This document shows positions 1-12,313 of a DNA stretch of 64,000 nucleotides, one piece after another; the first letter of the stretch is position 1; the number at the start of each line of letters is the position of its first letter. The position numbers and the translations under genes are program-made. Under the pieces are notes generated by a model, which had not been told where the DNA came from, did not search any database, and saw only the letters and a program-made list of their open reading frames with translations. The stretch is from assembly GCA_963976655.1 (NCBI GenBank), contig CAXBLB010000010.1:32725-96724 (forward strand), read 5' to 3'. Source of the DNA: an uncultured Halieaceae bacterium. Lineage in GTDB: Bacteria > Pseudomonadota > Gammaproteobacteria > Pseudomonadales > Halieaceae.

Positions 1-534
1 GACGTCATCCTGGTGGAGACAGTGGGCGTGGGGCAATCCGAGTACCAGGTGGCCAACATGGTGGATTTTTTCCTGGTACTCATGCTGCCCGGCGGTGGCG
101 ACGAGCTACAGGGCATCAAGAAAGGCATCATGGAGTTGGCGGACGCTCTGGTGATCAACAAGGCAGACGGGGAAAGCGCCAATCTGGCCACGTTGACCGA
201 GCGGCAGTACACCAGCGCCATGCACCTGCTGCGCCACACCAGTTTCTGGACCCCACGCGTTATGACCTGCTCCGCGCTCACCGGCGTGAATATTGATGCG
301 TTGTGGGGAATGCTGGTGGACTACTACTTTCAATCGCTTGAGCAGGGCGCCTTTGCTGCCAAGCGTGCGCAGCAGAACCGCGACTGGATGCACCAGTTGG
401 TGAATGAGATGTTACTGCTGAAGCTCTCGCAGAACAGCGCAATCAAGAACCTTCTGCCGGAACTTGAACGCGCCGTGGAGAACCAGGAGACGACCGCTTA
501 CGCGGCCGCCAGACGGATCATGGAGTTGTTTTAG
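1..534 (+). CDS. meaB: Methylmalonyl-CoA mutase-associated GTPase MeaB/ArgK, 5'-truncated by the window edge
   Basis: DVILVETVGVGQSE (switch/Walker B), GDELQGIKKGIMELAD and NKAD G4 motif typical of MeaB; frame is open from position 1. Confidence 0.9.
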   Translation, partial: DVILVETVGVGQSEYQVANMVDFFLVLMLPGGGDELQGIKKGIMELADALVINKADGESANLATLTERQYTSAMHLLRHTSFWTPRVMTCSALTGVNIDALWGMLVDYYFQSLEQGAFAAKRAQQNRDWMHQLVNEMLLLKLSQNSAIKNLLPELERAVENQETTAYAAARRIMELF

Positions 535-2487: not shown

Positions 2488-2754
2488 ATGAGTGAGGAAG
2501 ATTTCCGAACAGGCGTAGTATGGTCCCGCATGTCGCGCCTGCTATCACTGCGCGGGCTGCGGGGCCAGCAGCTGGGTACAGTGGGGTGGTGTGCGGTCAA
2601 TCTGTCCACCGGACGAATTGAGGCGGTGGAACTGCGCACTACCTGGCAGACTCTCACGATCCCCTGGCATCGGGTCACGCTGAATGGAGACGATGCAGAT
2701 CTCAGGTTGTTGGCGGAAAATGAGTCAGCTGGATCTCAAAAATCGTCGGACTGA
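2488..2754 (+). CDS. Small PRC-barrel-like protein
   Basis: G..LGTV..AVNLSTGRIEAVEL...LTIPWHRVTL resembles the PRC-barrel pattern; start uncertain (2488 or 2530). Confidence 0.5.
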   Translation: MSEEDFRTGVVWSRMSRLLSLRGLRGQQLGTVGWCAVNLSTGRIEAVELRTTWQTLTIPWHRVTLNGDDADLRLLAENESAGSQKSSD

Positions 2755-4100
2755 GACTCTTTGGCGTATTCTTTCAAGCGGTTGTAGAGTGTTTTCAGGC
2801 TGATCCCGAGGATATCGGCGGCGGCCTGCTTGTCGTCGCCAGTGTGCTCGAGCGTAGAGGTGATCAGGCGGTGCTCCATCTCGGCGATGCTCGTGCCGAC
2901 AGGTACTGCGATGAGCACATCGTCATGCTCCAGGCTGGCGGACTGATTGTCGATGGCAGACCGTAGTTCGTGATCTATAACCTCTTCCGACAGAATATAG
3001 GCGCGTTCAACCAGGTGCTTGAGTTCGCGTACATTACCAGGCCATGAGTGACGCCTCAGGGCGTCGAGAGCGGCCTCGGAAAAAGCCAGGGAGGTGGCGT
3101 GCTTCTCGTTCAATTCCCGCAGAAAGTGCTGTGCCAGGCCTTCAATATCCGCACCGCGACGTCGCAGTGGCGGCACCTTGAGAGGAAACTGCGCCAGGCG
3201 GTAGTAAACGTCTTCGCGCAATGAGCCTTCCCGCACCGCGTCTTCGGGCGAGCGGTTGCAGGCAGAGATGATCCTCACGTCGACATCAATGTCTGTGTCC
3301 GCTCCGAGCCGGCGCAGTTTACGGCTTTCCAGTACGCGCAACAGCTTTGCCTGCAGGTCGATGTTCATCTCGGAAAACTCGTCCAGCAGCAAAGTGCCTC
3401 CCGATGCCCGCTCGAAGTGGCCCTGATGCCTTCGGGCGGCGCCGCTGAAAGCGCCTTTCTCGTGTCCGAACAGTTCGCTTTCGGCCAGGTTTTCAGGCAC
3501 TGCGGCACAGTTGAATGCCACAAAGGGCCCATCGTGTCGCGCCGAGAGCATGTGCAGTGTTTGCGCTACAAGCTCCTTTCCTGTGCCACTCTCGCCCATC
3601 ACCATGACACTCGCCTCGCTCTGCGCCACTTTGCGCAACTGGCGGTACAGCTTGCGCATGCCTCGCGAGCTGCCGCGCAACATGCCGAACTGATCGATGC
3701 CACAATCGCTGGAGGTGGCCGGTTTACATTGCTCACTCGCAAATTCAGCCGCCATATCCTTCAGCAGTGGTCGAATGTTTGCCGGCTCAAGGGGCTTGCA
3801 GAAATAGTAGCTTGCACCACGCCTTATGGCGTCATCGGCAACTCCCGGTTCGTCCACGCTGACCATTACAAACAGCTCAGTGCTTTCCGACAGACTGGCT
3901 TCTGAGGGTGCAAAAACAGCGTGGTTGTCCGGGCAGTCGAGGTCCAGAAAAATCAGGTCAAACTGTTCCAGCGGCCCGCTTTCACTAGCCTGCTCAAGGC
4001 CGCCCGCGACCAATGTTTTGAAGCCGCAGGACTCGACAACCTCGGCCAGTTGTTGTGCATGCTCTGCATCTGTGTCAAGGATCAGGCATTGGGGTTTCAA
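2736..4100 (-). CDS. Sigma54-dependent response regulator (NtrC/AtoC family: receiver, AAA+, Fis HTH)
   Basis: Receiver with FLDL phospho-Asp; GESGTGKE Walker A; GAFSGA loop; WPGNVREL; C-terminal AADILGISLKTLYNRL; TTG start. Confidence 0.93.
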   Translation of the reverse strand: MKPQCLILDTDAEHAQQLAEVVESCGFKTLVAGGLEQASESGPLEQFDLIFLDLDCPDNHAVFAPSEASLSESTELFVMVSVDEPGVADDAIRRGASYYFCKPLEPANIRPLLKDMAAEFASEQCKPATSSDCGIDQFGMLRGSSRGMRKLYRQLRKVAQSEASVMVMGESGTGKELVAQTLHMLSARHDGPFVAFNCAAVPENLAESELFGHEKGAFSGAARRHQGHFERASGGTLLLDEFSEMNIDLQAKLLRVLESRKLRRLGADTDIDVDVRIISACNRSPEDAVREGSLREDVYYRLAQFPLKVPPLRRRGADIEGLAQHFLRELNEKHATSLAFSEAALDALRRHSWPGNVRELKHLVERAYILSEEVIDHELRSAIDNQSASLEHDDVLIAVPVGTSIAEMEHRLITSTLEHTGDDKQAAADILGISLKTLYNRLKEYAKESQSDDF

Positions 4101-4250: not shown

Positions 4251-5300
4251 TCACAGGCCGTACAGCCCGCGATATTCCGGGTCTTTCCCGGCGATCATTT
4301 CCGCAAGATCCACCATAACCCGGCATTGTTTCCAGGATGCATCGTCCTGCATCTTGCCCTCGACCATTACCGCGCCAGAACCGTCCGGCAACGCTTCCAG
4401 CACCCGACGGGCCCAGGCAACTTCATCGGGCGGCGGGCTGAACACACGCTTGGCGATATCAATTTGACTCGGGTGCAGCGACCAGGCACCTACGCAGCCC
4501 ATGAGAAACGCATTGCGAAACTGGTCTTCACAGCCCATCGGATCGTCGATCGCGCCGAAAGGACCGTAGAAGGGCAGTGCGCCCACAGCCACACACGCAT
4601 CCACCATGCGCGCCATCGTGTAGTGCCAGAGATCCTGTTGGTGCGTGGAACGTGGCGCGTCGGGCTCCGCCGGATCGGGATCGTTGCGCACCAGATAGCC
4701 CGGATGCCCCCCACCGATTCGGGTGGTTTTCATGCGGCGCGAGGCGGCCAGATCAGCGGGGCCCAGGCTCATGCCCTGAATGCGCGGGCTGGCGGCGGCG
4801 ATCTCTTCCACATTGGCAACACCCAGTGCGGTTTCCAGCAGACAATGCAGCAGTATCGGACGCTGTATTTGCCCGCGCGCCTCGAGTTGCGCCAGTAGCT
4901 GGTCGGCGTAGTGGACATCCCAGGGGCCCTGTATTTTGGGCAGCATGATGACATCGACCTTGTCACCAACCTCGGTCACGATACGGGTCACATCGTCGAG
5001 GAACCAGGGGCTGTCCAGGCTGTTCACACGCGTCCATAGCTGGGTATCGCCAAAATCATTGTCGCGCGCAACAGCAATGAACCCTTCACGCGCAGCTTCC
5101 TTGTTGTCGATGGCGATGGCGTCTTCCAGATTCCCGAGAATGATATCGACTTTGGCAGCAATACCCGGCGCTTTCTCTACCATTTTTGGGTTACTGGGAT
5201 CAAAGAAGTGGATCATGCGCGATGGCCTGACGGGTATGTCTTTCACGGGCTCGGGCGCGCCGATTGCCAGGGGGCGGAAAAAATCTCGTGGACTACGCAT
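4251..5300 (-). CDS. mcl: Malyl-CoA/beta-methylmalyl-CoA lyase, Chloroflexus-type (CitE superfamily)
   Basis: [49 protein letters not shown] and GKMQDDA match Chloroflexus aurantiacus Mcl as remembered; ATG at 5300 has a GGAG RBS. Confidence 0.85.
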
Positions 5301-5330
5301 GTCTGTGCTCCTGAAGCTCAAAAAACCGGA

Positions 5331-6305
5331 TCAATGGCTGTCAGCGCCGAGACGCTGACGATAATGGATATAGCAGTCAAAGGGGTCGCTGTCCTGTTCC
5401 GAGAGGGATGCCAGCAGATTTTTTTCGCCGCCCAGGCGGGCAATGCCCGCGCTGCCAAACTCGCTGCCCAGACGCTTGATGATCCAGCGAGCCTGGTGTT
5501 CGAGGCGTTTGGCTGCGACCGTGCCGCGCTCGATGAGTGAGGTGTGATGACTGTCAAGCGCATCAACCAGTGCTTCAATGCCGGTGTGCTGCGTGGCGCT
5601 GGTCGCCAGCACCGGTACCCGCCAGTTGCCATCGGCATGTTCCGTGGCCAGCGCAGCGGTGAATTCTGCCAGTGTGCGATCGGCTACCGCTCCCATATCG
5701 TACTTGTTCACCACCAGTACATGCGGTACTTCGAGAATTCCCGCTTTCAGCAACTGAATGCTGTCACCCGAGCCGGGCTGGGCGACGAAACAGGTTGTAT
5801 CACATAGCATGGAGACGTCTATCTCGCGTTGGCCCACGCCCACGGTCTCAACCAGTACCACATCGAAAGCCGTGAGCATCAACTGGCCCATCGGCCAGAC
5901 CTCGGCGCTCAGCCCGCCGAACTCGCCGCGGCTGGAGAGGGAGCGGATAAAGACTCCATCGTCCTGTGCGACCGCGTGCATTCTCAGGCGGTCGCCCAGC
6001 AATGCGCCCCCACTGATCGGGCTGGACGGGTCGACTGCCAGCACGCCGACGGTGCGACCTCGCTCACGCCACACCTGAATCAGTGCCGCGGTCAACGATG
6101 ATTTTCCCACGCCCGGTGGCCCGGTGATCCCGATCATGTGACTCTCCACCGGAATACCTCCGGCACGCACCGCATCGAGCAACTGCTGCGAGCTCTCCCG
6201 CTGTGCCGGTAGCCGGTTGTCCAGAATATTCAGCGCTCGCGCTAACGCGGCCCTGTCCCCGTGACGAATACGCGTCGCAAGCTCGGCGGTGGAGTGGTTC
6301 GACAT
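5331..6305 (-). CDS. meaB: Second MeaB-family GTPase, probable chaperone of the adjacent ethylmalonyl-CoA mutase
   Basis: GITGPPGVGKSS P-loop, AVDPSS, GALLGDRLRM, VETVGVGQ, VNKYD. Confidence 0.85.
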   Translation of the reverse strand: MSNHSTAELATRIRHGDRAALARALNILDNRLPAQRESSQQLLDAVRAGGIPVESHMIGITGPPGVGKSSLTAALIQVWRERGRTVGVLAVDPSSPISGGALLGDRLRMHAVAQDDGVFIRSLSSRGEFGGLSAEVWPMGQLMLTAFDVVLVETVGVGQREIDVSMLCDTTCFVAQPGSGDSIQLLKAGILEVPHVLVVNKYDMGAVADRTLAEFTAALATEHADGNWRVPVLATSATQHTGIEALVDALDSHHTSLIERGTVAAKRLEHQARWIIKRLGSEFGSAGIARLGGEKNLLASLSEQDSDPFDCYIHYRQRLGADSH

Positions 6306-6311
6306 GCTCGA

Positions 6312-8315
6312 CTAGCGGTCTGTGGCCAAGCCGCTGGCTTGTCGAATCACGTCGACAATGGTGTGCATGATGGCGTTCATATCCACATCTTTTGGCGTGA
6401 ATACCGCTTTCACGCCCTGGGAGCGCAGCGCTTCGGCATCGCTTTCAGGGATGATCCCGCCGATGACAATGGGCACCTCATCGGCATGAATGGCAGCCAG
6501 CTCCTTGCGGATATCTTCCACCAGGGCGAGATGGCTGCCGGACAGTACCGACAGCCCTATGAGGTGCACGCCTTCCTCCAGGGCGGCCCTGGCGATCTGT
6601 GCGGGCGTGAGACGTATCCCCTCGTAGACAATTTCAAAACCCGCGTCGCGCCCCTTGACTGCTATTTGCTCGGCGCCATTGCTGTGCCCATCAAGGCCGG
6701 GTTTGCCGATCAGCAGGCGCAGGGGACGACCGAGTTCCTCGCCCGTTGCGCTCACCCGCGCGCGCAGGACCTGCAACGGCTCACTGTCGTCCCCTTTGGA
6801 GCCCGCGATAGTGTCCACGCCGGTGGGTGCGCGGTATTCGCCGAAGACCTCGCGCAGCACTTCGCTCCATTCGCCGGTGGTCACACCCACACGGGCGCAG
6901 GCTATTGAAGCGGGCATGATGTTGTTACCGTCCAGGGCTGCGGCGCGCAGTTGCTTGAGTGCCTGATCGACATCGGCCTGCTCACGGGTTGCCCGAAACG
7001 CGCGCAGCGATGCAATCTGCTCCTCTTCGGCGCGCGCATCCACCCGCATGATGCCGGCATCAGTGCCTGCCGTCAGGGGAGATTCGGTCGTTTGCTGGTA
7101 ACAGTTGACGCCAACGATTTTCAGTTCGCCCAGCTCGATGTCGCGGAGCCGCTCGCTATGGCTGTGCACAAGTTCGCGCTTGACGTAGCCGCTGTCGATA
7201 CACTCAACCATGCCGCCACGTTCCGCCACGCGTGCCATTTCCGCTTCAGCGCCTGCCATCAGTTCCTGCACTTTAGCTTCTATCACCGGTGAGCCATCGA
7301 ATATGTCGCCGTACTCGAGCAAGTCTGTTTCCAGCGCCAGCACCTGTTGCATACGCAGCGCCCACTGTTGATCCCAGGGGCGCGGGAGCCCGAGCGCCTC
7401 GTTCCACGCCGGAAGCTGAATGGCGCGTGCGCGGGCATTTTTTGACAGTGTAACGGAGAGCATTTCCAGCACGATCCGCTGTACGTTGTTTTCCGGCTGG
7501 GATTCCGTGAGGCCCAGGGAATTGACCTGAACTCCGTAGCGAAAACGCCTCAGTTTCGGGTCTTCGACGCCGTAGCGTTCCGCTACCAGCGCGTTCCACA
7601 TGCGGGTGAACGCACGCAGCTTGCAGGTTTCCTCGATAAAGCGAATACCCGCATTCACAAAGAAGGAGATTCGACCCACCACGTTGTGGAAGCTCTCGGG
7701 ATCGATCTGGCCGGAGGCCTGTGCCGCGTCCAGAATGGCGGTGGCGGTGCACAGCGCATAGGCAAGTTCCTGCGTTGGCGTGGCACCCGCCTCCTGCAGA
7801 TGATAGCTGCAGATATTCGTGGGATTCCATTTGGGGATATTCTGTACAGTGTAGGCGATAAGGTCTGTGCTCAAACGCACAGAAGGCGCCGGCGGAAATA
7901 TGTAAGTCCCGCGCGACAGGTATTCTTTCAATATGTCGTTCTGCGTGGTTCCCTGGAGCTGGCTGGGATCCACTCCCTGCCGCTCGGCAACCGCGACATA
8001 CAGTGCGAGCAGCCAGGGGGCGGTGGCATTGATGGTCATGGACGTGTTCATCTGAGCCAGCGGTATCTGGTCGAAAAGCGCCTGCATGTCGCCGATGTGG
8101 CTGATGGGCACGCCTACCTTGCCCACTTCACCGCGAGCCAGTGGGTGATCGGAGTCATAACCTGTCTGGGTGGGCAGATCGAAGGCCACGGAGAGCCCGG
8201 TTTGACCCTTGCCAAGGTTCGTGCGGTAGAGTGCGTTGGATGCCCTGGCTGATGAGTGCCCGGAGTAGGTGCGCATCAACCAGGGTTGTTCGCGTTGGGG
8301 TGAATCCTGGTTCAC
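6312..8315 (-). CDS. ecm: Ethylmalonyl-CoA mutase (MeaA/Ecm), B12-dependent
   Basis: WLMRTYSGHS, LSVAFDLPTQTGYD, MNTSMTINATAPWL, QVNSLGLTE, and B12 motif GKPGLDGHSNGAE (MeaA-type); GTG at 8315 with an RBS just after the upstream stop. Confidence 0.9.
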   Translation of the reverse strand: MNQDSPQREQPWLMRTYSGHSSARASNALYRTNLGKGQTGLSVAFDLPTQTGYDSDHPLARGEVGKVGVPISHIGDMQALFDQIPLAQMNTSMTINATAPWLLALYVAVAERQGVDPSQLQGTTQNDILKEYLSRGTYIFPPAPSVRLSTDLIAYTVQNIPKWNPTNICSYHLQEAGATPTQELAYALCTATAILDAAQASGQIDPESFHNVVGRISFFVNAGIRFIEETCKLRAFTRMWNALVAERYGVEDPKLRRFRYGVQVNSLGLTESQPENNVQRIVLEMLSVTLSKNARARAIQLPAWNEALGLPRPWDQQWALRMQQVLALETDLLEYGDIFDGSPVIEAKVQELMAGAEAEMARVAERGGMVECIDSGYVKRELVHSHSERLRDIELGELKIVGVNCYQQTTESPLTAGTDAGIMRVDARAEEEQIASLRAFRATREQADVDQALKQLRAAALDGNNIMPASIACARVGVTTGEWSEVLREVFGEYRAPTGVDTIAGSKGDDSEPLQVLRARVSATGEELGRPLRLLIGKPGLDGHSNGAEQIAVKGRDAGFEIVYEGIRLTPAQIARAALEEGVHLIGLSVLSGSHLALVEDIRKELAAIHADEVPIVIGGIIPESDAEALRSQGVKAVFTPKDVDMNAIMHTIVDVIRQASGLATDR

Positions 8316-8325
8316 GGTGTTTCCC

Positions 8326-9501
8326 TCACGCTGGGCGGCGCCGGATGAGGAGGCGCCGTTCAATTTCGAAGATTTTGTCTGCGAGCTTCTCTTTACCCAG
8401 GCCCCGTTTGGAGTCTTCCTTGATAAAAAGATCTTCGCCATGCTTTTCAAGGGCGGCGGCGGCAGACAGATTTTTGACACCTATCAACTGCATGCTCACC
8501 ATCCCGAGCTGTTCTGCGCCGGGCACATCGTCGACCGCGAGAATGCGGCTGAGGGCGCCGATCGTATCGCCGGCGAATGCGGGTTGCGTGTGATAGCCCT
8601 CGTTGAAGCCGAGTTCCCAGAGAGCGTTCTCACTCACGTCGCGGCTCGCCAGACCCTCCAGCCAGGCAAACACCAGGCCACCGTAGACGATGGGTTCGCC
8701 GCTCATCTTCCCTGAAAGCCCGCTTGAGAACACGCGATCAAAGTGCAGCGGATGTGAGTTGCCCACCATATAGGTCAGTGCCATATGTTCTTCAGTGATG
8801 GTACGGCCATTGGCGTGCACGATAATCTCACCGGGCCGATAATCCTCAAACCAGGTATTGGGGCCGGTGAGCCCCGTGTGCACGGCACCCGCCGGCGGCT
8901 TGGGCAATTCCACCTGTGGCTCTGAAACCAGCGGAAATTCCACCTGCAGGGCGGCCGCAGGGGTTGTGGGTGGGCGATCGCCGCGCCAGGCGACAAAAAT
9001 CTTGCGCTCGTATTGCAGCACGATTTCGTCGCGCTGGTTGATAGAAACAGTCAGTATGCGCACGATGCCCGGCTTGTCCGGCCCCCGGTCCTTTCTTTCC
9101 AGCACACGGGTGAAGGCGCGCAGCGTGTCGCCGGCATACACCGGGCGCAGGAACTGCACCTGATAGTAACCGAGGTTGGCGATCGCCTTCTCGGAATCGT
9201 TCTGCACGCCGAGTGAGAGCGTGACGTTGAACACCATCTGCGGGCTGGCTGGAAGGTCGGCGAAACCCAGGGCCCGGGCATACTGCGCATTCAGGTATAG
9301 CGGGTTCGCCTGCATGAAGGTGCGCGCGAAGTCGAGCATATTGCTGGCAGTGAAAGTAAAGCCGCGAGGGTGTTCGAATTCCTGTCCCGGTTGCAGCTCG
9401 TCGAGGTAGCGACCGTACTGCGGGTGGCGCACCTTGCCGAGATCTATCGGCACATCCGGTGCGCGCTCTGCCTGTTCTCCCGGAGACAGCTTGATCTTCA
9501 T
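8326..9501 (-). CDS. mch: Double-MaoC (hotdog) hydratase, probable mesaconyl-CoA hydratase
   Basis: Two MaoC domains, IANLGY motif, TITEEHM resembling Mch TIEEAEHM, and position between mcd and ecm; ATG at 9501 follows a GGAG RBS. Confidence 0.7.
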   Translation of the reverse strand: MKIKLSPGEQAERAPDVPIDLGKVRHPQYGRYLDELQPGQEFEHPRGFTFTASNMLDFARTFMQANPLYLNAQYARALGFADLPASPQMVFNVTLSLGVQNDSEKAIANLGYYQVQFLRPVYAGDTLRAFTRVLERKDRGPDKPGIVRILTVSINQRDEIVLQYERKIFVAWRGDRPPTTPAAALQVEFPLVSEPQVELPKPPAGAVHTGLTGPNTWFEDYRPGEIIVHANGRTITEEHMALTYMVGNSHPLHFDRVFSSGLSGKMSGEPIVYGGLVFAWLEGLASRDVSENALWELGFNEGYHTQPAFAGDTIGALSRILAVDDVPGAEQLGMVSMQLIGVKNLSAAAALEKHGEDLFIKEDSKRGLGKEKLADKIFEIERRLLIRRRPA

Positions 9502-9512
9502 GCCATGTCTCC

Positions 9513-11195
9513 TCAGGCCGCCTGTTCGATTAACGCCCGGGTGATCACCTTGAGGGCCAGGGTTTCCTCGGCTCCCTCGAAGATGGACAGTACCCGCGCA
9601 TCCGCGTAGTAGCGACTCACGGGAGTCTCTTCGGCGTAGCCCATTCCCCCGTGAATCTGCAGCGCTTCGCGTGTCAGCCACTCGGCCGCGCGCCCGGCAA
9701 ACAGTTTGGCGGCGCTGGCTTCCATATCCCCGTCGCCCTTGTCCATCATGTCGGCTACGTCGTAGGTGATCTGGCGGCAGGCCAGAATCATCGCGGCCAT
9801 GCGTGCCAGCTTGACTCGAGTGAGCTGGTACTCGCCTATGGCCTGGCCGAACACAACGCGTTCGCTCGCGTAGGAAATCGCCCGCTCGAAGGCCGCTCGC
9901 ATCACTCCCACGGCGCGGGCCGCGGTCTGGATACGCCCTCCCGCAAAACCGGCCATTGCGGCGTAGAAGCCTTTGCCTTCGCCCTCCGGGCCACCCAGCA
10001 TATTTGCATCGGGCACAAAAAAATCATCGAAAAACAACTCAAAGGAATGCATGCCGCGATAGCCGATGGTTGCAATCGCCCGCCCGCTCAGCTTCCCGCC
10101 ATCCTCCTGGTTCACGCTGAGGGTGTGACCGCTACTGCTGGGCTTTTCCACCAGGAACATCGACAGACCGCGATGGCCGAGGCTCATATCCTGATCAGTG
10201 CGCGCTAGCACCATCAGCACGCCAGCCTTGCCGGCGAAAGTGCACCAGGTCTTGGCTCCATTGAGTAGCCAGCCGCCTTCGGCTGGGGTGGCTTTGAGGC
10301 GCACGCCCGCTACATCGGAACCGTAGTTGGGCTCGGTGACGGCCACCGCACAGAGCGGCTCGCCCACGGCGAGCTGCGGCAACCAGTGCCGCTTCTGCTC
10401 TTCCGTGCCGCCCTTGAGCAGGGCGCGCGCAAGAATCTCGGGGCGGGTTATCAGGCTGCCGGCCGCTCCCAGCGAGCCGCGGGACAGCTCTTCGGTCACC
10501 ACGATCATACCGAGAGTGTCTTCCTTGTCGTCCGCCTGCAGGCCACCGTAACTTTCGGGAATGGACAGCCCGAACAGGCCCATTTCCTTGAGCGGTTCAA
10601 GAATTGCGTCCGGTATGTCGAGATCCTCACGATGCACTTGTTCGGCCAGCGGCGCGACAACATCGTCCGCGAAGCGCCGGAAGGTGTCGCGCATCATGCT
10701 GTGGTGTTCGCCGAGCAGATCCGGACCGAGGTCGCCGTTGCGTTCGAGTATCTGTTGCCCCAGTAATTCCATGCTGTCGGCTGCGAGCTGCGCCTCGAGA
10801 AATGCGCTCGCGGGGCCGGCATCGGTAAGCTTGGCAATCTCATCGAGGGTGGTGCCATAGGCTGTCGGGCGCAGCCGCAGGCGGGCCAGGCTGGAGGATA
10901 CCGCTTCGGCGCAGAACAGCATGGCCAGACGCTCCACGAAGGCGTCCGGCTTGCTGGCCTGCAAACGTCTCGCGTGGTCGAGCAGAAACCGCGCCGCGGT
11001 GCATTCCGACCAGCTTACGGCGAGTTCGTAGGAGGCGAGCTGCTGGGCGTCGAGCAGTGCAGGGGAGACCTTGCCGTCCTGCAGGCTAGCCGCGCGAATA
11101 TGTGCCGCCGCGGCATCCAGCAGCGCATGGGCACTCGACAGTAGGGAGCCGGCCGAATCGAGCGGAAGCCCTTGTTCCGGGGAGACCTGGGTCAT
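9513..11195 (-). CDS. mcd: Methylsuccinyl-CoA dehydrogenase (long acyl-CoA dehydrogenase)
   Basis: ACAD motifs TEPNYGSD, IGYRGM, QIHGGMG, IFEGAEE; N-terminal extension of about 170 aa typical of Mcd; sits in the ecm operon. Confidence 0.8.
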   Translation of the reverse strand: MTQVSPEQGLPLDSAGSLLSSAHALLDAAAAHIRAASLQDGKVSPALLDAQQLASYELAVSWSECTAARFLLDHARRLQASKPDAFVERLAMLFCAEAVSSSLARLRLRPTAYGTTLDEIAKLTDAGPASAFLEAQLAADSMELLGQQILERNGDLGPDLLGEHHSMMRDTFRRFADDVVAPLAEQVHREDLDIPDAILEPLKEMGLFGLSIPESYGGLQADDKEDTLGMIVVTEELSRGSLGAAGSLITRPEILARALLKGGTEEQKRHWLPQLAVGEPLCAVAVTEPNYGSDVAGVRLKATPAEGGWLLNGAKTWCTFAGKAGVLMVLARTDQDMSLGHRGLSMFLVEKPSSSGHTLSVNQEDGGKLSGRAIATIGYRGMHSFELFFDDFFVPDANMLGGPEGEGKGFYAAMAGFAGGRIQTAARAVGVMRAAFERAISYASERVVFGQAIGEYQLTRVKLARMAAMILACRQITYDVADMMDKGDGDMEASAAKLFAGRAAEWLTREALQIHGGMGYAEETPVSRYYADARVLSIFEGAEETLALKVITRALIEQAA

Positions 11196-11440: not shown

Positions 11441-12313
11441 ATGAAAATCAGACCGCGTCGCTCCCTGTTGTATATGCCCGGTTCCAATCCCAGAGCGCTG
11501 GAAAAGGCGCGCACACTGGATGCCGATGGCCTTATTCTCGACATGGAAGACTCTGTTGCCCCCGACGCCAAGCAACTGGCCCGTGAGCAAATCGGCGCGG
11601 CGCTCGAGGCCGGCGGCTATGGCTACCGTGAACTCATGGTACGCATCAACGCTCTCGCAACAAGCTGGGGAAGCGATGACATTGCCGCGATAGCCGCCTT
11701 TCCGACCCAGCCGGATGCCGTACTGATTCCCAAGATCGATACGGCGACCGATGTGCAGGACGCGATAGCAGCGCTGGACGCAGCCGGCTGTCCCGCAAGT
11801 GTCGATGTATGGATCATGGCTGAAACGCCGGCTTGCATTCTCAACATCGCCGAGGTGGCCAGGGCGCATCCGCGCTTGAAAGGCATGGTGATGGGCACTT
11901 CCGATTTGTCCAAGGATACGCGTGTACGCCACACGCCTGACCGCCTGGGCTTTATCAGCGCATTGAATCTGTGTGTCTATGCGGCGCGGGCCAATGGGCT
12001 GGATATTATTGACGGCGTGCAGCTTGATCTGGAGGACGATGCGTTGCTGGAAAAGTCCTGTGAGCAGGGCAGGGATCTCGGCTTCGATGGCAAAAGCCTC
12101 ATTCATCCGCGCCAGATCGCCGCCGCCAACGCGGTATTTGCGCCGAACGAGGACGAGGTTGCCGCGGCGCGCGAAATTATCGCTGCATTTGAGGCCGCCC
12201 AGGCCGAAGGCAAGGGCGTGGTGGTTGTCAAAGGGCGCCTGGTGGAAAATCTGCACGTTGAAATGGCGCAGCGCCAGCTCGCGCTCGCCGAGGCCGTAGA
12301 GCGCTCGCGCTAG
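11441..12313 (+). CDS. mcl2: (3S)-malyl-CoA thioesterase Mcl2 (CitE family)
   Basis: RSLLYMPGSN.RALEKA, DMEDSV, MVMGTSDL, GRDLGFDGKSLIHP and VENLH resemble Rhodobacter Mcl2; ATG at 11441 follows an AGGA RBS. Confidence 0.75.
   Translation: MKIRPRRSLLYMPGSNPRALEKARTLDADGLILDMEDSVAPDAKQLAREQIGAALEAGGYGYRELMVRINALATSWGSDDIAAIAAFPTQPDAVLIPKIDTATDVQDAIAALDAAGCPASVDVWIMAETPACILNIAEVARAHPRLKGMVMGTSDLSKDTRVRHTPDRLGFISALNLCVYAARANGLDIIDGVQLDLEDDALLEKSCEQGRDLGFDGKSLIHPRQIAAANAVFAPNEDEVAAAREIIAAFEAAQAEGKGVVVVKGRLVENLHVEMAQRQLALAEAVERSR

Follow-up and report, generated by a model that had tools for sequence, protein, structure and literature searches.

A Chloroflexus-clade malyl-CoA lyase in the EMC-type operon of an uncultured Halieaceae bacterium

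Malyl-CoA lyases of the Chloroflexus type form a cluster with pairwise identities of at least 57%, marked by a long conserved N-terminus, His32, an insertion at residues 182–220 with a long hairpin loop, and a C-terminal lid reaching to residue 348; the key residues are Arg92, Glu157, Asp184, Asp318 and Ala183, and the type is described as a hexamer acting on malyl-, β-methylmalyl- and citramalyl-CoA (Zarzycki & Kerfeld 2013, PMC3832036). Rhodobacter Mcl1 also forms citramalyl-CoA, and both assayed Mcl clades handle this ester (PMC3832036). Methylorubrum extorquens, an EMC user, has a Chloroflexus-related second Mcl beside a Rhodobacter-related one, and a role in the EMC pathway has been suggested for this second Mcl (PMC3832036). 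The clade of the enzyme, the breadth of its activities and its occurrence in an organism that uses the EMC pathway are already published. In Streptomyces, the genes of the pathway form the compact emc operon ccr1-ecm-mml-mch-mcd, and the carboxylation of butyryl-CoA is acknowledged as another way to obtain ethylmalonyl-CoA (PMC4606968). A further point of comparison is the itaconate-methylsuccinate cluster of Pseudomonas aeruginosa and Cupriavidus necator (PMC12290011).

The locus compared here with these systems lies in a 64,000-nucleotide stretch of DNA, hereafter the window, from a Halieaceae genome that is 99.96% complete. An intact mcl reading frame of 349 codons occupies 4251–5300 on the minus strand, with its ATG at 5300 and its stop at 4251, and a ribosome-binding site, AGGAG (5308–5312, minus strand), stands 7 nt ahead of the ATG inside the 30-nt meaB-mcl gap. 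The best PDB matches of its 349-aa product, a predicted malyl-CoA/β-methylmalyl-CoA lyase, are 4L7Z of Chloroflexus (509 bits) and 6KIN of Roseiflexus (504 bits); 5UGR (227 bits) and 4L9Y, Rhodobacter Mcl1 (213 bits), come next. The alignment with 4L7Z is colinear over residues 5–349 with a 2-residue loop insertion, and its identity, about 64% by hand count on the printed alignment, lies above the 57% of the Chloroflexus-type cluster. The long N-terminus, the equivalent of His32, the loop insertion and the C-terminal lid can all be traced in this alignment, so that Mcl resembles C. aurantiacus MCLC (4L7Z/4L80) and 6KIN over its full length. Residues H31, R91, E156, A182, D183 and D319 correspond to H32, R92, E157, A183, D184 and D318 of MCLC; this is the complete set to which catalysis, binding of the metal and the entry of propionyl-CoA are ascribed, with the alanine that admits propionyl-CoA among them (PMC3832036). 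Four motifs of the Chloroflexus type, from which the sequence-only reading had argued, are all present, at residues 10, 190, 221 and 315; three are identical to those of C. aurantiacus Mcl, and the second departs from it by an I in place of V. On sequence grounds, these comparisons confirm the proposal that Mcl is a Chloroflexus-clade lyase and not Rhodobacter Mcl1.

The setting of the gene is equally characteristic. mcl is the last gene of a minus-strand run, mcd-mch-ecm-meaB-mcl, with gaps of 11, 10, 6 and 30 nt, which places the lyase inside an EMC-type operon as had been claimed. The first gene, mcd (9513–11195), encodes a putative (2S)-methylsuccinyl-C1-CoA dehydrogenase of the Pseudomonas migulae type (604 bits to PDB 8CIW vs 313 bits to Paracoccus 6ES9). 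It is followed by mch (8326–9501), for a divergent double hot-dog mesaconyl-C1-CoA hydratase (PF19315; best PDB matches 4E3E and 8HGN) just 30–32% identical to the Mch of Rhodobacteraceae and of 3-hydroxypropionate (3-HP) clusters; neither protein is of the Rhodobacter type. The product of ecm (6312–8315), a predicted ethylmalonyl-CoA mutase, shares 65% identity with the Streptomyces mutase encoded beside ccr and about 65% with actinobacterial and myxococcal Ecm, including that of Streptomyces humicola, as against 37% with the Mcm of this genome. It has Gly and Pro at the positions of His and Asn in the genome's own Mcm, a signature that reportedly separates Ecm from Mcm. The fourth gene, meaB (5331–6305), encodes a B12-mutase chaperone GTPase (TIGR00750 above cut-off). 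The operon is of non-alphaproteobacterial type throughout.

Divergent from mcd lies a CitE-family gene (11441–12313, plus strand) whose product is 51% identical to the Ruegeria CoA ester lyase TM1040_RS03035 and groups with it (SH-aLRT 99). This reference was identified by synteny: it adjoins mdh and a MaoC hydratase gene, presumably the position of mcl2 in Rhodobacter. The placement in the Mcl2 clade bears out the earlier view of the divergent gene as Mcl2-like, and its product is a probable malyl-CoA thioesterase. At the other end of the operon, just downstream of mcl, a sigma-54 response regulator gene (2736–4100, minus strand) is found at this place only in the closest relatives (L001; a fragment in L003) and is therefore not part of the operon. 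A second meaB, represented in the window by its 3' part (13–534, plus strand), is the last gene of a convergent carboxyltransferase-biotin carboxylase-epi-mcm-meaB cluster just upstream of the window, and these five genes lie a few kb off in most Halieaceae loci. The divergent biotin-dependent carboxylase pair conserved beside epi-mcm consists of a 647-aa carboxyltransferase and a 957-aa biotin carboxylase-carrier (G000:C10:24824-29634; L115:2825-7638, G000 being this genome); it is less than 30% identical to the genome's other carboxylases and is a candidate propionyl-/butyryl-CoA carboxylase. A third B12 acyl-CoA mutase, split into large and small subunits and with its own meaB, is encoded at G000:C9:90150-93333. 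A promoter and terminator scan gave nothing above shuffled sequences.

The phylogeny of the CitE superfamily, which the sequence-only reading had proposed as a check, separates Mcl from Rhodobacter Mcl1 by a long branch (100/100); the tree was built without a Chloroflexus sequence, and Chloroflexus was compared through PDB scores and the printed alignment. Mcl groups with lyases of Actinomycetota, Myxococcota and Binatota, to which it is 68–73% identical, apart from four lyases of 3-HP-type clusters (94/96, just under the starred threshold). Lyases of 3-HP-type clusters are 63–66% identical to Mcl, and one of them scores 605–610 bits against 4L7Z and 6KIN, vs 504–509 bits for Mcl. Nine alignment columns separate the Ecm-associated from the 3-HP group; at the eight that can be read in the 4L7Z alignment, Chloroflexus has the 3-HP state and Mcl the other. 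Ecm is encoded in all 20 actinobacterial genomes with this type of lyase, vs 61 of 201 Actinomycetota overall, a count in which kin are not independent, and in five diverse genomes that were spot-checked. Four genomes marked unpublished (G238, G512, G559 and G599) enter only the actinobacterial and gammaproteobacterial tallies; none of them is among the 20, and they carry none of the claims made here. In about 19 further actinobacteria with Ecm the lyase is Rhodobacter-like, and the two lyase clades therefore look interchangeable. The PDB comparison returned no member of the Ecm-associated sub-clade among solved structures, and no enzyme assay of any of its lyases was found in the literature. 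By the company it keeps, Mcl is native to EMC-type gene sets outside the Alphaproteobacteria and not a graft from the 3-HP bicycle. The notion of a pathway mosaic with that bicycle is not supported: the lyase belongs to a sister sub-clade that travels with Ecm, and Mcd and Mch of the operon are not of the Rhodobacter type either.

Among relatives, the six-gene layout of operon and divergent mcl2-like gene recurs in 36 loci, and Halioglobus and other Halieaceae have close homologues of Mcl. This lyase (at least 84% identity) is encoded in 31 of 151 Halieaceae genomes, the same 31 that carry this Mch, and the operon is kept in four Halieaceae genera, Halioglobus included. Operon genes appear fragmented in four MAG loci (L013, L023, L033 and L036), most likely through sequencing indels. 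Elsewhere in the Gammaproteobacteria, a Chloroflexus-clade lyase was found in 3 of 300 genomes and a Rhodobacter-like lyase in about 40. In two gammaproteobacterial loci of another family (L231 and L232; G202 and G395), a lyase of the same sub-clade (73%) follows directly after meaB, with no ecm nearby. The idea that mcl by itself was recently transferred into the operon was rejected because its GC3 of 0.68 is typical of the long-ORF mean (0.71 ± 0.06) and its position is fixed in about 50 loci. A literature search of partial coverage found no paper linking ethylmalonyl-CoA with Halieaceae.

Taken with the neighbouring genes, Mcl very probably cleaves β-methylmalyl-CoA to glyoxylate and propionyl-CoA and, together with the Mcl2-like protein, makes malate from glyoxylate and acetyl-CoA. 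Upstream of this step, Ecm with MeaB would convert ethylmalonyl-CoA to methylsuccinyl-CoA, Mcd would oxidise the latter to mesaconyl-C1-CoA, and Mch would hydrate this to the β-methylmalyl-CoA that Mcl would split as a Mg2+-dependent C–C lyase. In the malate branch, Mcl would join glyoxylate to acetyl-CoA and the Mcl2-like protein would convert the resulting malyl-CoA to malate. Malate synthase G may serve as a second exit for glyoxylate, and propionyl-CoA would reach succinyl-CoA through the neighbouring carboxylase-epi-mcm cluster. Ethylmalonyl-CoA could be supplied by Ccr in this genome; in relatives without Ccr, the best guess is that the divergent biotin carboxylase encoded nearby carboxylates butyryl-CoA at the expense of ATP. 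The predicted reactions and the pairing with an Mcl2-clade gene are shared with Mcl1 and Mcl2 of Rhodobacter (Cereibacter) sphaeroides, whose Mcl1 also forms citramalyl-CoA. The Halieaceae system differs in that Mcl is of the other clade (about 39–40% identical to Ruegeria Mcl1), the genes are joined in an operon, the subtypes of Mcd and Mch are not the same, a glyoxylate shunt is also present, and Ccr was not found in relatives.

Mcl may additionally have a second task, a possibility we put forward tentatively: to act in trans as a working (S)-citramalyl-CoA lyase for a separate gene module, a function compatible with its EMC role. This conserved module, sdr-acad-caiB-ich without ccl, lies on another contig (G000:C5:229580-233544; L112:3581-7545), with the isocitrate lyase gene about 8 kb away, and its SDR is 77–92% conserved across genera. 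If the lyase is shared, the route through the module would start with the activation of methylsuccinate, mesaconate, citramalate or itaconate and lead to (S)-citramalyl-CoA, from which Mcl would release pyruvate and acetyl-CoA. The module shares Mcd(C4)-, Ict- and Ich-like genes with the P. aeruginosa and C. necator cluster (PMC12290011); in contrast to that cluster, it has an extra conserved SDR, and this genome offers neither ccl nor an MmgE/PrpD isomerase gene. The ccl and msi genes were sought for the C5 module and not found in this genome. The module's ACAD (64% identity), CoA-transferase (46%) and hydratase (46%) are this genome's best matches to their counterparts in a ccl-bearing Ralstonia cluster, which is arranged like the published itaconate/methylsuccinate cluster. 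The only PDB matches of the hydratase are 8KHG (itaconyl-CoA hydratase) and 8HUC, and an Ich-like gene is found in 33 of 36 genus members. Two relatives have an MmgE/PrpD gene within this cluster, in line with methylsuccinate use (PMC12290011). In sister genera ich is directly followed by a CitE-like gene that was not found in 40 Halioglobus genomes, and this genome has just two CitE-family genes. Both assayed Mcl clades accept citramalyl-CoA (PMC3832036), and in C. necator a lyase-less ict-ich operon contributes to itaconate use while the ccl genes stand in other operons (PMC13491972).

Several observations speak against this sharing. G097 and G062 have the same lyase-less module and no Chloroflexus-type Mcl, and in G097, which is 100% complete, the sole PF03328 gene is of the Mcl2 clade; the Mcl2-like paralog, or another fold, may therefore carry out the citramalyl-CoA step. 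Incomplete clusters are also common in the literature, with all five genes in only 36.4% of Msi clusters, and the module, whose substrates are putative, carries an extra SDR. The Mcl2-like paralog is an equal candidate for citramalyl-CoA cleavage; provided that the module operates in the manner of Pseudomonas, this step is probably performed by either of the two CitE-family proteins. Lyase and thioesterase activity occur together in some CitE-like enzymes (PMC6689899). A third CitE-like gene in some Halioglobus (L181, L182, L262 and L263; G010, G011, G179 and G131) was considered as the lost ccl and rejected: it forms its own clade, lies beside ACAD/MaoC genes, occurs in the ich-less G131 and is absent here. 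That Mcl is, in Halioglobus, the shared exit of two gene sets, each incomplete in other respects, is a more speculative extension and rather unlikely: one would be a Ccr-independent lower EMC module that is fed by butyryl-CoA carboxylation and runs beside the glyoxylate shunt, the other a methylsuccinate/itaconate module that could lose its lyase since Mcl does the same work.

It is similarly improbable that the operon serves canonical Ccr-driven acetate assimilation across the clade, as in Rhodobacter and Streptomyces, with Ccr missed in the relatives. This genome does encode a Ccr above the TIGR01751 cut-off and, alongside it, Ecm, Mcd, Mch, Mcl, the Mcl2-like protein, Epi and Mcm; the EMC pathway is therefore formally complete here. 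This Ccr, the signature carboxylase of the pathway, is the only one above cut-off among 151 Halieaceae genomes, and none was found in the other 30 operon-bearing Halieaceae; just the 11 best candidates of each genome were scored, a limit that leaves room for a missed enzyme. Against this, the same search recovered the Caulobacter control and Pcs domains that match far more weakly. The gene itself (G000:C4:118065-119273; L113:8066-9274, minus strand) is sporadic and actinomycete-like: it has only three close relatives at 86–88%, followed by others at 77% and below, and those of its relatives that carry a name are for the most part Ccrs of actinomycetes at close to 70%, none of them from Halioglobus. 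With the Streptomyces Ccr encoded beside ecm it shares 39% identity. It lies beside a GSCFA-family gene and surface-polysaccharide-like genes, a close homologue lies among acyltransferase and FabH genes, and these neighbours suggest specialised metabolism; the secondary-metabolism Ccr of S. tsukubaensis is reported in the literature not to have sustained growth on acetate. A hidden Ccr look-alike is not apparent among the MDR genes beside mcl in L044, L045 and L047 and the one at C5:106.7 kb, which are just 22–26% identical to Ccr. This genome also encodes a full glyoxylate shunt of isocitrate lyase and malate synthase G, and icl is present in several relatives' loci too. Because Ccr was not found in the 30 relatives, canonical acetate assimilation is probably not the conserved job of the module, and the conserved unit is the lower half of the EMC pathway, probably used for something other than acetate.

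The side route of the sequence-only reading, in which Mct converts mesaconyl-C1-CoA to the C4 ester, Meh adds water and Mcl then splits the product into pyruvate and acetyl-CoA, is very unlikely. Membership in the Chloroflexus clade does not predict it, because Rhodobacter Mcl1 makes citramalyl-CoA as well, and the C1-to-C4 conversion is unsupported because it needs Mct. With a real Mct (523 bits to PDB 8APQ) as query, nothing above 29% identity was found in this nearly complete genome, and short Mct motifs had no match in it either. The genome is rich in family III CoA-transferases, any of which might in principle shift CoA via free mesaconate. The search for mct, meh, mcr and pcs that had been recommended thus returned only a Meh/Ich-family hydratase gene, 43% identical to a Meh from a 3-HP cluster and 46% to Ich; it sits in the methylsuccinate-type cluster on another contig.

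That Mcl is a remnant or working part of the 3-HP bicycle, for autotrophy or co-assimilation, is hardly credible and largely refuted by gene absence: its clade, and the mcl-mct-meh-mch-smt clusters and Pcs-sized proteins of other Halieaceae genera, would fit such a role, but this genome has no Pcs (frames bearing a Ccr-like domain reach 537 aa at most, vs 1,800-aa frames in positive controls) and no Mcr-sized SDR (longest frame 676 aa, Mcr being sought by frame length only), its best SmtA/B matches are 30–34% identical, and its Mcl falls in a different sub-clade from 3-HP-cluster lyases. Partial 3-HP clusters with mcl, mch, smt-like, mct and meh genes occur at L234, L235 and L236 (G076, G117 and G182, of other Halieaceae genera), and one with mcl, mch and smt-like genes at L233 (G323, another gammaproteobacterium); in G076 and G323 a Rhodobacter-like Mcl is encoded in tandem with the cluster's own, and Pcs-sized proteins are found in at least 10 members of the family.

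Set against the described systems, the Halieaceae operon differs from Chloroflexus in the sister sub-clade of its lyase, in a genome without mct, smtAB, mcr and pcs, and in a lyase predicted to run in the EMC direction. It resembles M. extorquens in the proposed assignment of a Chloroflexus-related Mcl to the EMC pathway, and differs in that this is the only Mcl and is part of the operon. It is compact like the Streptomyces emc operon, with ecm, a lyase gene, mch and mcd, and differs from it in having meaB and no ccr. A Chloroflexus-like Mcl is therefore no marker of the 3-HP bicycle: a sister branch, apparently never assayed, serves EMC-type gene sets across several phyla. If Mcl replaces Ccl, some lyase-less itaconate/methylsuccinate clusters would be explained, and if Mcl is a shared exit, all three of its activities would have a physiological use outside the 3-HP bicycle. 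Should the lower EMC reactions proceed without Ccr in a widespread marine group, the module would escape surveys in which ccr is the marker, and its entry enzyme would be one other than Ccr.
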